From Eledone cirrhosa (Eukaryota): a stretch of 64,000 bases of DNA. The translations under genes were made by a program, and so were the position numbers. Below are positions 1 to 63,681 of the stretch, in pieces. The stretch covers positions 216,070,001-216,134,000 of the forward strand of contig OZ024743.1 in assembly GCA_964016885.1 (NCBI GenBank), read 5' to 3'. The notes under the pieces were generated by a model that worked only from the letters and a program-made list of their open reading frames with translations, was not told the origin of the DNA and did no database searches. Position 1 is the first letter of the stretch. Each line of letters begins with the position of its first letter.

Positions 1-1058
1 AGTGCAAGCATTAAAGATATTAAAAGTATTGGAAATGCACAGCGAAGGGATGATATGGACTTCATGCACTTCGACATTTTCATAGTCGGGGGAGTGTATT
101 TTTCAGATTATATGCCCCTCACATAATCCACGACAATTCGATATTGAGCGTTTGACAATCCAGTTAGAGAATCGTAGTCTGATGTTCTTTAGTTCAATAC
201 AGGTGGCTGTTACGTTTCGAGAATCGACATTGAATACAAAGAACATCAGACTACGATTTTCTAACTGGATTGTCAAACGCTCAATATCGTATTGTCGTGG
301 ATTATGTGAGGGGCATATAATCTGAAAAATACACTCCCCTGACTATGAAAATGTCGAAGTGCAGGAAGTCCATATCATCCCTTCGCTGTGCATTTCCAAT
401 ACTTTTAATATCTTTAATGCTTGCACTATTGTTAATGCTTATATCATTTCTCCACACACAGACTATAACAATCATATAAAGAATTTGCCACCAGATCAAC
501 CAACCTAACACTCTTGTTTACCTACCTAAGTGCTTCTACTACACGTAACTCTCTGCCACACTATATAAACAAGACGCACGTGCTTGCCACACATATAACA
601 TTTGCACTATATAACCGCTTATTTTCATGTTGTATTTTAACATGTATTTTTGATTTTTTATTGTACCTTTTAATATGAATGTAATCTCTAAGTGTGTACT
701 GCCACTCTAAATGCTGTAATGAATGTTGACCCACAATATTTGCATATGTATCTGTATGTCTCTTGGGTGGAAAGGGAGGTCATATAACTGTCCATTCATT
801 AATAAATTGCTCCGAAGAATCCAAACCTCGGTTTGGAGGAAACAGTTGTAAGCACAAAAATGTTTTGAACAGTTCTTTGATTCTTATATTTCATATAACT
901 GCTCTGTAAATCATCTGATGTTTTTACATTGAGTTACTTAACTTACTGGTAATAAGGTAGTAATATATTACTGCCTACCACTATTTAGGGTTTGTATAAA
1001 AAAATATAACTGCAAAAGGTTTTTGTATTTACATAACCATAAATAGTATAATTAATAC
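1..1058. mobile_element. Foldback insertion 1: inverted arms ~1-198 and ~229-427 (left arm runs off the window). The right copy continues to (TA)n at 1059. Probable PLE 3' end (pLTR) pair
   Basis: AGTGCAAGCATTAAAGATATTAAAAG at 1 mirrors CTTTTAATATCTTTAATGCTTGCACT ending at 427, with a few mismatches and a ~30-nt spacer. HHR motif at 808-854 upstream of (TA)n. Confidence 0.8.
808..854 (+). ncRNA. Type-I minimal hammerhead ribozyme motif (U4C variant)
   Basis: TGCT-CCGAAGA-aTCCAAACC tc GGTTTGGAg-GAAA-CAGTTG-TA-AGCA: stem I, core, 8-bp stem II and near-palindromic stem III. Confidence 0.75.
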
Positions 1059-1449
1059 TATATATATATATATATATATATATATATATATATATATATA
1101 TATATATATATATATATATATATATATATATATATATGTATATACATATATATATTTGTGTGTTTGTGTGTTGGTAGAGAGGCATGAGGGCACTTTTGAT
1201 GCCGGATGGGATGACTATTATTATACGCTTTTTCCAAGAGACAAGTTGTAGAGGCGGTTATTCGTTGGCGTATTCGTGTGAGAGTGTCAGCCCGTGCCCG
1301 CATATCATTGACGATCGCATCTGTAGTCCTCCGCGGAATGGCTAGTAATTGATACTCATGACCAGATTTCCATACTGGCCAGGTGCCTCTGGGGAAACGG
1401 TACGCCGGCTGGTGGTATTACACTACTGAGTATTAGTCATTCGTAACAT

Positions 1450-2490
1450 TCACCGCATCTATCAGGGATATCTTCCTCTCAGCCCATTCCAAAGTGAGAC
1501 TGGCCAAATTCATCGCGATATTTTCTCAGTTAAAATAACACCCAAGCCCAATTGGACAGGTCAAATATCTAGGTGCAAAACACGACGGGATGGTGAAATT
1601 CGTTGAAAAACATGATAGGAGTAAGAAGCATCATTCTATCATGAAACAGATCAAAATATTTTCTGCTGATCTCATGACTATTATCTTAGTTTGGAGTGAA
1701 TGATTTAACTGTGACAACTTTTGTCGCAAAGTAAATAGAATTAATGGCTACGAAAAAAGAGGACGAAAACTTATCAACAGTGTGGGAGCAGAAAGTTTGG
1801 ATGGCAAATATGTTGCTCGTAGCAAACAAGTTGATGTTGACCAGTAGCTCTCCCTTCAGTGGGCATATATGTCAGGGATTGGTCTTAGCTGCCCAAGATC
1901 AAAAGCTTATTTTAATGGCACTATCGAGCCAATGTGTTGGGAAATAGAGCAGATCAAGAGTATCCTTGCTGCAATGATGCGATTCAAATTGTGGAGCAAT
2001 CAATATCTGGGTATAAGGATTCAGCACCAGTAAAGTATAAATTAAAACATGCTAGAGTTAGACAATAACGTATGAGCATCACTTTGGGACTGTATGTAAG
2101 GATTCTTGGAGATTTATTTGTATATACAAGGATTCTTTGAGATTTCTTAGAGATTTCTTTGTATATACAGGCAGAATCATCAATGCTAACAAACCGCATA
2201 TTATCATAAAATACAAAAATAACAAATTATGTTTATTGATCGATGTGAGAATTCCATTTGATCACAATACTGCGGCAAACAAAATTTGACAAGCTCAGAA
2301 AATATAATGACTTGCAGATTGAGAATCTCAGAAAATATAATGACAGTGATTGTAGGAGCACTAGGGATAATAAAGAAAAGAAGAGAAGAATATCAGTTAT
2401 TGGTCAGTGGCTTACCATTGCTTCATGAAGTGCAGAAGTTGTTTTAACTGGTATGGCGCATATATTCAGAAAAGCAGTATTGCTATGAGA
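1450..2490 (+). mobile_element. Degenerate R4/Dong-like (RLE) non-LTR retrotransposon fragment
   Basis: Remnant motifs KYLG, GLVLAAQDQ, DV.IP.D, VIVGALG and a C-terminal LTG.AHI.RK; many stops and frameshifts. Confidence 0.6.
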
Positions 2491-2871
2491 ATGATAATCA
2501 TCAATGTATTTTTTATTTACCATTTATAATTATTATTCAATAATTATATAAGTTGTAAATAGTTGAGTACTCTTATATGATTGGCTATCATTATGTTGTA
2601 GATATGATTTCATACAGATAATATGCACATGTATAAAGTGAATTGTATACTTGTAACAGCGTAAGGTGCGTGAGGTGAACAATCTTGTGTGTTTGTTTTG
2701 TATATTGAGGTTCTCTTCCCCAGTGGCCAGGAGGACACTCGGCAGAAATCGAAACAAAGCTAATGTAAGAGGAACCCAAATAATAGTGATGATGATGATG
2801 ATGATGATGATGATGACTTAATAACAAGGCTAGTAATTTCAGGGGATGAAACATATCTATTTAATAGACCT

Positions 2872-2955
2872 CAATACTTGTCCTGTATATTTTCTCATCA
2901 ATCTCGGAATGATGAAAGGCAAACTAGACCTCGGTTGGATTTGAACTCACTACGT
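2872..2955 (-). mobile_element. Old, diverged tRNA-SINE fragment
   Basis: GATGAAAGGCAAA...CTCGG..GGATTTGAACTCA resembles the reverse complement of the young SINE core and B-box. Confidence 0.55.
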
Positions 2956-4869
2956 TTAGATCGTGGTCAAATACTCTAAAAGTTTCCCAATGCTCTAGTA
3001 TTATAATAACAAATTTGCATACAATGACTTTCAATAAAATAACAAATGGTTAGCTCTGTAAGCAACAAAAAACAATATAATGCAGGACAGGATTTATATA
3101 TTGAAGATTCAACCCCATATATACCCTTCCATAAAAACACACGAAACCTACTCATAAAAAGGAGTCGCGTGACATTATGACAACACGGCTGACAGCAGAG
3201 CGCATGCTATACAGAGCCACAGCATTATACAAACACTCATAACAACACTCTCATAACCTTCAACTACCACCGACATAAAATATCTCACATCTACACATAT
3301 TCTACACTGAAGAAGAAACCGTAACGTAACATCCGATTTAACAACGTTAGCCGTACAATGTTTCTACATACTCAACAAAGAACTGTTGAAACACTTCAAG
3401 AACACCTGTTGGTGTAATAGATATATAAAACTGTTGCGAATGTCATCATAATATTTAGCAATAAAATGAAAAGAAAACAAAATAAAAAGACAAGTTATTT
3501 GATATTAAGATAAATTGAGGCAATATTAACTTAATCTTAGATTCCGTTTAACTTCTACTTCACATACACAACATACCATATCCTGATGAAATTATCATAA
3601 CATCAAACTTTATACACTCGATGCGTGTGCTTTCTTTACTCATATCATCAAAGTATCGTAGCAGTTCAAATCAGGATAGAATAATGTAACGATATCTACA
3701 AAGGAAATCAGATGAAGGTGAATCCATTTCACATGTGCAGAAAACCTATGAAGTATTCGTAGCCCTTGCTGCACGCTCTTTGAAATGTGATGTCATTGAA
3801 AACAAATATATTTTCCATGAAATGTTTCAAAGGAGCGTTATCATTGCTGGGGGTATAAATATTGCTTTCTTCAATGAGTGATAACTATATATATATGTAA
3901 ATACACATACACACACACACACACACACACACACACACATATATATATATATATATATATATATATATATATATATATATATATATATATATATATATAT
4001 GTGTGTGTGTGTGTATATATATATATATATATATAAATATATATATATATATATATATATATATATATATATATATATATATATATATATGTGTGTGTGT
4101 GATTATATATATATATATATATATATATATATATATATATGTGTGTGTGTGTGTATATATATATATATATATATATATATATATATATATATATACAGAG
4201 TGAGAGAGAGACGTCTCTCACGAATGTTTGTAATTCTGTCATCTAAATTCACACTCTAAATTGAGATACAAATAGAACATTTCTGAAACATCTTATCACT
4301 TAATATTAACAACAACATTCAAAACGGTAAATATATCATAAATCAATATTAACGACTTTACTACCTAAAATAAATTGTCATTTGCCTTTTGCTCTTTTTT
4401 TTTTTCCAGATATAATCATTTACTAATCAAGTTATAATGAAAATTCATGATATTATATTGTGACGTATCACACCTCCATTTTTCGGTGCTAAATACTTAT
4501 GCCTATATACAAACAGATATTTTATTCTCATTAAAACCACATGGATTAATTCAATTTTTTATATTATACATACATATTGAGAGAGCTACTTTCAGATACG
4601 TAAAATTTATTTTTTCTAAGAAATGAATTTTTTCTAATATTTGTACGAAGTTAAATATATAATTATATTTCCCTACAACTTTTCTAGAACGCACTTGATT
4701 AATTATGTAAATCATGAAATTTCGAACACTCCCTTTTTGATATTGTTTTCGACTAAATTCTCTGCGGTCCCTATGTTTAAAATACATTATCACAGTTTTT
4801 ACCCTTTCCTCTCCCTCTGAGAGTTGAGTATGATTATGTACACTTAAAATAACAACGACCAATGTGTTG

Positions 4870-62697: not shown

Positions 62698-62859
62698 TAA
62701 CGCCTAGGGGTATTACTTCTACTACCACTATGACCACGACCACTAACAACAACAACAACAACAACAATAATAATAATAAAAGTGATGTTGATGGTGATGA
62801 TTAATAGAAAATGCTATTTTCATCATTTCAAAAAGCAAAACAATTCATACGTTGGGTAT

Positions 62860-63010
62860 GACTATTGGTCGTTAGCATGCTCAACCAGCCGTGACGCTTA
62901 AACCAATCAGCTGTAGTAATTCAGTGAAACTACACACTGATTGGTCGAAATACAGTTTACAGGGCTTTGCATTCTGGAGCCACTTTTCTCTGTATAAAAT
63001 GTATAAAAGG
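62860..63010 (+). promoter_or_regulatory. Putative pLTR Pol II promoter: three CCAAT/ATTGG boxes and two TATAAAA motifs upstream of the HHR (mirrored at ~59265-59415)
   Basis: ATTGG at 62864, CCAAT at 62903, ATTGG at 62940, TATAAAA at 62993 and 63002; motif-level evidence only. Confidence 0.45.
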
Positions 63011-63071
63011 TAGTAAATTTACCCATCTCATTACAGTTGAAAATTGCAAACTCGACTGTAACCACATATCA

Positions 63072-63110
63072 TGAACCTGAAGATTGCGAAAGCATGAAAG
63101 TACTTGTTCA
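63072..63110 (+). ncRNA. Intact minimal hammerhead in the PLE 3' pLTR, ~120 nt before (TA)n
   Basis: TGAAC-CTGAAGA-tTGC gaaa GCAt-GAAA-GTAC-TT-GTTCA. Confidence 0.85.
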
Positions 63111-63681
63111 ATTAACACTTAGAATTTAATATTCTATCATACTATTTCATTATAATACCATATTATATGTATTTTAAAGGATCGTAAATAAAACGAGTAA
63201 ATCAGACCAAGTTGGAATTCCTCTTATTAATATATATATATATATATATATATATATATATATATATATATATATATATATATATATATACCAGTTGGCA
63301 TATAATGATCAGAAAGGCTTTAGGCACTACCACTTTTAATGTCGCACTACATTTCGCCAAGGGACTTGAGCACTGGAGCGCGATGCTACCATTTTTTGTA
63401 CAGCGATTGGAGACTGATTTTCTCTAATATCCAATGTTTTCACTCATTTGTTATATTGTGTTTGAAATTTGTTGGTTTAGTGCTTATGGCGGGAGATGGA
63501 GTATTTGAATTTCGACTCCTACCATCATATAAATTTCAGAACAAGTAGCCAATCGGTTGACAGCATTGTGACGATGCATAAGGATTTCAGTTGCTAATAT
63601 ATTACTGTGTCACCAGTCACATTCCCTGCCATAGCCGACACGGACTGGAATCGAAATATGTCGATCGATTGATTAAACGAA

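Follow-up and report, generated by a model that had tools for sequence, protein, structure and literature searches.

Head-to-head foldbacks at TA repeats in Eledone cirrhosa pair a long with a short 3' end

Foldback insertions of six repeat families in Eledone cirrhosa obey a near-strict pairing rule: one arm ends at a long 3' end site and its inverted partner at a short one. Of 87 head-to-head pairs found among the best 30 hits per search, 80 combined a long with a short end, two were long and long, none was short and short, and five had an intermediate end (P 7e-22 for 80 of 82). From the sequence of these old insertions we consider it probable that each foldback arose as one insertion into (TA)n, by two target-primed cDNAs, one per strand, which would have started at two fixed sites of the RNA and been end-joined. 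The new element is the near-strict pairing across six families. No count of it was found in the literature, but older papers cited for the tail, or supplements, may hold one.

Six foldbacks and their 3' ends

The window, i.e. the whole stretch of 64,000 nucleotides that was analysed, was described in an earlier note as carrying six unrelated inverted repeats with TA-repeat borders. All six were recovered by self-BLAST after simple repeats had been masked. They come from six separate high-copy families, and a TA run stands at every outer end, imperfect only to the left of E5. The limits of E1, E3, E5 and E6 had to be corrected, as either the 3' tail of an arm or the end of its partner had been overlooked. 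In all six, the left arm reads on the minus and the right arm on the plus strand. E1 (1..1058; inverted repeat 1-427, 92%, E 1e-175) is a complete two-armed foldback centred at about 237. The true start, that of the short-ended left arm, lies 466 nt before the first position of the window, and the long-ended right arm covers 238-1058. E2 (10038..10523; inverted repeat 10031-10525, 92%) consists of arms at 10038-10317 and 10315-10523, both long-ended. E3 (49205..51161, starting at 49205 and not at 49310) gave inverted repeats at 49342-49494/50995-51146 (93%) and 49619-49812/50800-50993 (96%); its left arm (49205-50797) has the long end, its right arm (50800-51161) the short end and an internal deletion. 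E4 (52594..53287; inverted repeat 52677-53285, 93%) joins a long-ended arm at 52594-52981 to a short-ended one at 52986-53287. E5 (extent 56972-57458; inverted repeat 57013-57433, 81%, E 8e-116) has a short-ended left arm at 56972-57220 and a long-ended right arm at 57221-57458, the tail of which carries an internal deletion. E6 (58990..63229, with a corrected start; inverted repeat 59048-60543/61734-63229, 98%) has a long-ended left arm at 58990-60543, a short-ended right arm at 60813-63229 and an extra inverted piece (60542-60793) between them. A three-piece inversion of this kind was considered as a general pattern and dropped, as among complex chains the exact adjacency occurred in the window copy only.

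The best 30 hits of each search, taken from 1187-4267 first-look candidates, supply the family counts, and the sample therefore leans to young copies near those of the window. Foldbacks made up 96 of 156 sampled insertions, roughly half and biased upward by this choice, and single arms about 40-55% of sampled copies. The expectation that palindromes are a routine outcome across families was borne out, since foldbacks were present in all six. Every family showed two sharp classes of 3' end, 60-167 nt apart, and an alternating TA run of at least 8 nt followed 292 of 340 distinct ends in this sample. In read-through copies, all 12 end sites terminate in 3-13 nt of alternating TA. Unpaired insertions in the same sample used both ends about equally (27 long versus about 29 short). 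Longer loci of five families gave 101 long and short pairs, three long and long, none short and short, and 19 with one end damaged. There are three long and long exceptions, window E2 among them. For E5 the original count was kept, in which an intermediate end at +19 represents the short end extended by TA overrun; 11 apparent short and short pairs in the longer loci were an artefact of a reference copy without the downstream tail. The E6 block was counted in the longer-locus analysis, the earlier reference copy having carried TA flank.

Penelope-like elements, a retrozyme-like unit and hammerhead motifs

All six are separate high-copy families in which the 3' end is fixed and the 5' truncation staggered, and for this reason none is a MITE. 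The earlier proposal that the arms are 3' ends of Penelope-like elements (PLEs) stood for five families, which run into ORFs of the RT/GIY-YIG type; E2 is a non-coding tandem unit. E1 and E3-E6 display 5' truncation, a fixed 3' end and an optional tail, and partial tandem copies form pLTRs at seven loci (L202, L204, L206, L210, L213, L215 and L190). Judged by their ORFs, these five are the 3' ends of autonomous PLEs. In E6, the RT, thumb and GIY-YIG coding stretch (60910..62694, plus strand) is broken by stops into three stop-free pieces; Pfam matched PF01541 (GIY-YIG) and placed PF00078 (RT) below cut-off. Both domains were weak in E5. Pfam gave no match for E1, E3 and E4, and four of the six proteins in the run on Hydra-type ORFs remained without a match. 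The ORFs of these three families nevertheless hold a YRDD motif, and their endonuclease region aligns with that of E5 and E6 at Y, Y, R and H.

Compared with the motif set of the Hydra clade (Craig 2021, PMC8557442), the E1, E3 and E4 ORFs contain DKT, the CxCX5C linker and the endonuclease CxxC and CxH, with RWR versus the RWK-type motif of the clade. We accordingly class these families as putatively Hydra-type; (TA)n was found at 54/64, 44/51 and 64/67 of their ends, respectively. In many E4 copies the last linker C is replaced by F. E5, with a CX4CxxC linker, and E6 are probably of Neptune or Nematis type, as indicated by a CX2-5CxxC linker before a C-terminal endonuclease.

The E2 unit has 598 bp, is arranged in tandem and has a longest Met ORF of 48 aa; at 6 of 67 ends the sequence continues into the following unit. 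No autonomous ORF occurred in 40 whole insertions of 302-1734 bp, and the unit had no match among the reference copies of the five other families. A parent element is possible among the unsampled part of its 1550-2046 candidates. By its short non-coding tandem unit and type I hammerhead, E2 appears to be non-LTR retrozyme-like. A reading as a hammerhead-less Naiad end was dropped, as E2 has a hammerhead and lacks an ORF. The family nonetheless has two 3' ends, a TA target and an inverted partner, and it obeys the same long/short rule as the PLEs, pointing to its mobilisation by PLE machinery.

A hammerhead-shaped motif lies shortly 5' of the short end in all six families; for the five that the descriptor called, the distance is 42-150 nt. 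The motif is also present in E2, where none had been noted before. Not every arm of the window keeps an intact core. In E1 the motif (CCGAAGA core) is at 808-854 on the plus strand, with a second copy in the left arm. In E2 the core is of the U3-A8 type and the left window arm holds the 3' half only. The E3 motif (TTGAAAA core) is at 49360-49406 on the minus strand, and the GAAA of its right-arm copy is changed; in the right arm of E4 the GAAA is lost. E5 carries its motif at 57279-57321 on the plus strand and a changed core in the left arm. E6 has a CTGAAGA core in both arms. The E4 core is non-canonical, since CUGAGAA (C3 opposite A8) was present in 44/44 parsed copies of the 67 ends examined and the descriptor called 0/67. 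Candidate hammerheads were called at a fixed position for 50/64 ends of E1, 46/51 of E3, 26/51 of E5 and 37/40 of E6, and the descriptor called 34/67 ends of E2. These calls rest on the descriptor and the fixed position across copies, because Rfam listed no hammerhead among 150 of 163 matches, which were simple-repeat miRNA and snoRNA noise only, and folding of 12 motifs by minimum free energy gave no significant result (z -2.0 to +1.1). That the hammerheads face outward simply follows from the ribozyme sitting near the 3' end of the element.

Origin of the two arms

A protein dimer would nick the symmetric (TA)n target on both its strands, and each target 3' end would pair with TAT/TATA at a start site of the RNA, over 3-5 nt or, at one site, 13 nt. 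Each start site would be used once per event, leaving the tail on one arm only. Both cDNAs would usually derive from one donor, either by two rounds of copying of a single RNA with strand displacement or from two repeats or transcripts of one tandem locus, and microhomology-mediated end joining would close the centre. Without a second cDNA, the first would be joined directly to the TA flank to give a single insertion. Most likely the primers are equivalent and the start sites are not. The earlier note had envisaged two equivalent primers, but the arms are not equivalent as products, one starting at the long and the other at the short end. Its idea of two cDNAs joined at their 5' truncation points agrees with our data, to which two independently templated arms give the best fit.

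Clean joins overlapped by at least 2 nt in 50 of 76 cases (16.5% expected), and extra or unmatched bases were present at 61 of 137 junctions. No two insertions shared both centre points in E1 and E3-E6 (110 junctions, best 30 hits per search). Target duplications are unreadable inside (TA)n.

Self-priming was proposed from junction palindromes (Arkhipova 2013, PMC3846280): an antisense RNA or first cDNA would fold at its 3' end, be copied to a hairpin and then integrate. This would account for shared haplotypes, for junction microhomology and for a small excess of near-symmetric centres (10/110 within 20 nt, 4.0 expected, p 0.002). The arm reaching furthest 5' would however have to be the first strand, and a fixed resolution step would then place the tail on the longer arm every time or on the shorter one every time; of 101 pairs (best 30 hits per search) this arm was short-ended in 47 and long-ended in 46. 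As either arm can be the longer one, neither contains the other in about half of the pairs, and simple snap-back copying is therefore excluded; where the short-ended arm is longer, it offers no template for the tail of the other. Centres also lie at arbitrary points with overlaps of 0-8 nt and not at built-in palindromes, and we regard self-priming in general as unlikely. To the same degree unlikely are two cDNAs from unrelated RNAs of a pool, made alike by later gene conversion and with the long/short rule imposed by an asymmetric dimer. Donor-diagnostic alleles were indeed confined to one arm in 35 of 108 cases, where recurrent mutation would predict 5-9, and one foldback, L108, clearly combines two haplotypes; a single template therefore does not serve every event. 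Shared alleles were moreover denser in the inner arm halves (92 versus 55), a hint of some conversion close to the centre. Yet both arms are mostly of one donor haplotype: minor alleles common to both numbered 147 versus 27 expected, whatever the spacer length (arm-likeness ratios 0.66, 0.74 and 0.65), about 2% of sites remain different between the arms, and at L113, L119, L151 and L341 both arms carry the same whole subfamily haplotype. Such arm-shared haplotypes also occur in other insertions.

The remaining explanations carry very little weight. Fold-back chimeric reads could have produced an assembly artefact, and the best sequencing run matched the E5 stretch at a share of 0.20 only; this is nevertheless highly improbable given arms that differ by 0.5-4% per family (19% in window E5) and asymmetric ends at biologically fixed sites, with mirror ends at TA runs. 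Slightly less probable still are two separate insertions at different times, head to head by chance in one TA hotspot. Different families do stack within one TA run, but here the arms are of the same family, lack TA at the centre, share haplotypes and combine long with short ends in 80/82 cases, a rule that a later insertion could follow only by reading the end of the earlier one. Short TA-flanked palindromes look like Tc1/mariner-type MITEs. Genuine MITEs, or DNA transposons of another kind with long terminal inverted repeats, are the least credible source: TA does flank short palindromes on both sides, but size and centre vary per copy, the ends are unlike, many copies are single arms and the arms enter RT/endonuclease ORFs. 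The earlier suggestion that the short foldbacks only mimic MITEs is thereby upheld, and the comparison of centres that it called for revealed neither fixed terminal inverted repeats nor uniform size. In such genomes, TA-flanked short palindromes are likely mislabelled as MITEs.

Relation to known systems

In L1 twin priming, both target strands prime on the element RNA and microhomology closes the inversion. That process inverts a non-overlapping 5' piece, whereas both arms of the present foldbacks copy the same 3' sequence.

The idea of a candidate new system could not be maintained, since the layout is already published (Craig 2021 Fig. 2; Arkhipova 2013; Cervera 2014): the inverted 5'-truncated copy, the one-end tail, the (TA)n bias and an in vitro reaction in which both strands are nicked and extended are all known. 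Insertion units of endonuclease-bearing PLEs share with ours the head-to-head inverted copy, the pLTR tandems and a tail often at one end only, and Hydra, Naiad and Neptune types the (TA)n preference (PMC8557442; PMC3846280). The tail is 60-167 nt here versus 30-40 in the published PLEs of these papers. The one-end tail was counted here as a near-strict rule in six families, and the centres are arbitrary, unlike the built-in palindromes described in PMC3846280. The same paper describes inverted insertions of Adineta vaga with ordinary 9-10-bp target duplications, which by analogy suggests that a TA target is not required. Craig 2021 (PMC8557442) treats the origin of PLE inverted structures and tails as an open question.

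The closest biochemical parallel is PAc, a Poseidon element of Anolis (Frangieh 2024, PMC11167929), whose protein, a predicted dimer, nicks and extends both strands of an AT-rich target in vitro and uses two RT starts that define the tail, similar to the model proposed here. Its start site is described as lacking homology to the cut DNA, in contrast to the short TA match at the start sites here, and the portion of the account considered reports neither coupling of the two starts in one event nor inverted products. The long and short rule, with either arm longer, can be put directly to this in vitro system as a prediction, and for the families studied it speaks against self-priming as published. 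More tentatively, and with somewhat less than even odds, twin-start priming may be the standard PLE route, in which a dimer would copy one RNA twice, from two fixed TA-matching starts into opposite strands of the target, and a non-coding retrozyme-like RNA would use the same step. For two or more PLE clades, one rule would then account for tail, inverted pLTR and short palindromes alike.

Cervera and de la Pena (2014, PMC4209133) describe dual minimal hammerheads that lie 100-700 bp from each other on opposite strands; these are the same small foldbacks, whose ends and mechanism are not analysed in the sections cited of that paper. Its U3-A8 core variant is common to E2 and E3, and the E4 core (C3 opposite A8) is absent from those sections. 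Non-LTR retrozymes resemble E2 in being non-coding, tandem, dispersed and high-copy with a type I hammerhead (PMC7229834; bioRxiv 10.64898/2026.07.22.740005). In what we cite of these two sources, their link to PLEs is drawn from distribution and pLTR similarity; E2 adds the integration signature of PLEs, a mechanistic sign beyond co-occurrence that retrozyme-like RNAs may use PLE proteins. At 598 bp, its unit is larger than the about 300 typical of the retrozymes in these sources.

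Six foldbacks and the elements behind them

All six inverted repeats claimed in the earlier note were recovered by self-BLAST of the window (216070001-216134000 in the 3.0-Gb assembly) with simple repeats masked. Identity between arms was 81-98%, and a TA run abutted every outer end of these foldbacks, called E1 to E6 in window order, as had also been claimed. The proposed spans held for only two of them; alignment of natural reference copies to the window moved the start of E1 to 466 nt before window base 1, of E3 to 49205 and of E6 to 58990, and placed E5 at 56972-57458. Since 43 TA runs of at least 18 nt lie within the window, the majority border none of the six.

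One own-genome search per arm gave 1459-4267 first-look candidates, of which 40 were scored and 30 fetched each. The fetched copies showed a common outer end and staggered inner stops in the five families compared, E1-E5, and likewise in E6. In longer stretches, the arms of E1, E3 and E4 proved to be the 3' ends of elements that carry RWR, DKT, YRDD and CxxC/CxH together with a CxCX5C linker. These motifs match the Hydra clade, except for RWR in place of RWK, in the account given by Craig 2021 (PMC8557442), and the three families would by their motifs be Hydra-type; a Pfam search of their ORFs did not detect the elements. E5 and E6 combined a CX4CxxC linker with Pfam matches to RT and GIY-YIG. 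The origin from Penelope-like elements (PLEs) had been correctly recognised. The E2 unit, 598 bp, non-coding and arranged as partial tandems, had no joined ORF in 40 whole insertions and did not resemble the reference copy of any other family; judged by sequence, it is retrozyme-like. At another sampled locus (L218:2451-8001), repeats of 610 and of 310 bp form tandem arrays, the latter in inverted layout at 100% identity; they are unrelated to E2 and possibly reflect an assembly issue.

The foldbacks are real, PLE-derived and of known architecture, so that of the candidate 'twin-insertion' system the structures stand and their novelty does not. Earlier papers describe an inverted 5'-truncated copy, often with the tail (the sequence between two 3' ends) at one end only, and a (TA)n preference (Craig 2021), a tail on one of the inverted partial tandem copies, or pLTRs (Arkhipova 2013, PMC3846280), and opposite-strand hammerhead pairs 100-700 bp apart with a U3-A8 core (Cervera and de la Pena 2014, PMC4209133); inverted pLTRs also figure among the known peculiarities in a curation guide. 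A count of long/short pairing was not found in the literature searched, which lay outside the 2005/2006 tail papers and all supplements. What is added here is that the long+short rule holds near-strictly in two clades and in a retrozyme-like passenger, so that an open mechanistic question can be tested directly.

Other elements were observed in the window: a further, single Hydra-type PLE fragment at 51580-52550 (-) with an endonuclease frame (51926-52483), TA runs on both sides and relatives at three sampled loci (L127, L164, L176); a LINE-type element with RT and zf-RVT frames at 28066-29517 (+); and, at 20300-20712 and 21579-21758, an inverted pair in which 180 bp near one end of a SINE-like copy, itself flanked by 15-bp direct repeats, repeat at 98% identity a stretch ~1.1 kb downstream. 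This last inverted pair is without TA borders.

Pairing of long and short 3' ends

Among 340 distinct 3' ends, every family had a short and a long end, separated by 167 (E1), 166 (E2), 107 (E3), 80 (E4), 60 (E5) and 63 nt (E6), with a few intermediate ends in E5. An alternating TA run of at least 8 nt followed 292 of them; 16 others continued into the next unit, the remainder mostly meeting short or imperfect TA runs. Head-to-head pairs were long+short in 80 of 87 cases, long+long in two and short+short in none, five involving an intermediate end (P = 7e-22 for 80/82). Within the window, five foldbacks were long+short and E2 was long+long. Four of the initial searches took in the tail and were biased to long anchors; repeat searches placed 5' of the short end left the rule unchanged. 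Unpaired insertions used both ends near-equally (27 long, about 29 short). Longer loci of E1-E4 and E6, E5 being omitted because its reference copy is without downstream tail, gave 101 long+short, 3 long+long and 0 short+short pairs, and 19 with a damaged end. Foldbacks made up 96/156 resolved insertions in tail-neutral samples with edge cases dropped, a true share of ~45% to 62% because one foldback can be hit twice.

In read-through copies, all 12 end sites finished in alternating TA (3-5 nt at eleven, 13 nt at one). Other TA stretches nearby were unused, so TA pairing likely helps start-site choice but does not alone decide it. At five E1 loci (L153, L166, L168, L170, L172; L158-L172 region) and at L223, the final 8-12 nt at the element's 3' end stood as short direct repeats ahead of the TA run, as though priming had begun anew. 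Long-end arms of merely 37-79 nt at L287 and L102 stopped within the tail before the short site. Different PLE families were inserted back to back within one TA run at L030, L139, L145, L218 and L220; each insertion therefore leaves fresh targets.

Templates and joining of the two arms

We consider it probable that (TA)n is nicked on both strands, presumably by a protein dimer, that each nicked strand primes one cDNA at one of two start sites, and that microhomology would join the two cDNA ends. According to PMC11167929, Poseidon of Anolis (PAc) nicks and extends both strands in vitro, is predicted to form a dimer, and starts at two sites that coincide with the ends of the tail. The comparison of centres suggested in the earlier note found them variable: no two insertions had both centre points in common among 110 junctions of the five autonomous families, and only E2 had two such pairs among 27. 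Clean joins (76/137) overlapped by 0-8 nt, at least 2 nt at 50/76 against 16.5% expected; the other 61 had 1-52 extra or unmatched bases, partly reference divergence.

Self-priming, as set out in Arkhipova 2013, fits in part. It agrees with haplotypes common to both arms: whole haplotypes recurred on both arms in separate insertions, minor alleles were common to both 147 times against 27 expected, at every spacer length, and arms within an insertion were closer than arms across insertions in 60/76. It conflicts with the even split over which arm is longer. The long-ended arm reached further 5' in 46 and the short-ended in 47 of 101 longer loci (8 within 20 nt); a first, shorter sample of 80 gave 47, 27 and 6 near-equal. 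In insertions whose short-ended arm is the longer one, each arm has sequence that its partner lacks, and both must therefore have been copied from an outside template. For priming from two nicks, a single RNA copied twice would be the simplest route to the strict rule, but the templates may also be two repeats of one donor, or two of its transcripts. A single template in every event is disfavoured, because diagnostic alleles lay on one arm only in 35/108 cases (5-9 expected), one locus (L108) held two haplotypes and allele sharing was higher in the inner half of the arms. Inside E6, an inverted piece (60542-60793) starts no more than 3 nt from the + arm stop. It is a twin-priming inversion of the L1 type on top of the foldback and suggests a shared RNA in that event.

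Hammerhead motifs

A type I descriptor permitting a U3-A8 pair placed a candidate hammerhead at a fixed position, 42-150 nt upstream of the short end, in E1 (50/64 ends), E2 (34/67), E3 (46/51), E5 (26/51) and E6 (37/40); neither the Rfam matches listed nor MFE folding backs these calls. E4 (0/67) carries a motif of hammerhead shape whose helices are long; since its core is CUGAGAA in all 44 parsed copies, its activity is doubtful. The claim of outward-facing hammerheads holds as a candidate motif near the 3' end in all six families, but cores are damaged in several window arms and E4 is uncalled. The outward orientation follows from this 3' position and requires nothing further.

An older repeat at 51225-51540, 70-79% identical to other copies and carrying, near 51347, a hammerhead-like motif of the U3-A8 type, is likely a seventh foldback-forming family, since an opposite-strand partner was present at 5/40 scored places. 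A hammerhead motif with a canonical core also lies outside the six foldbacks, at 36031-36095 (-).
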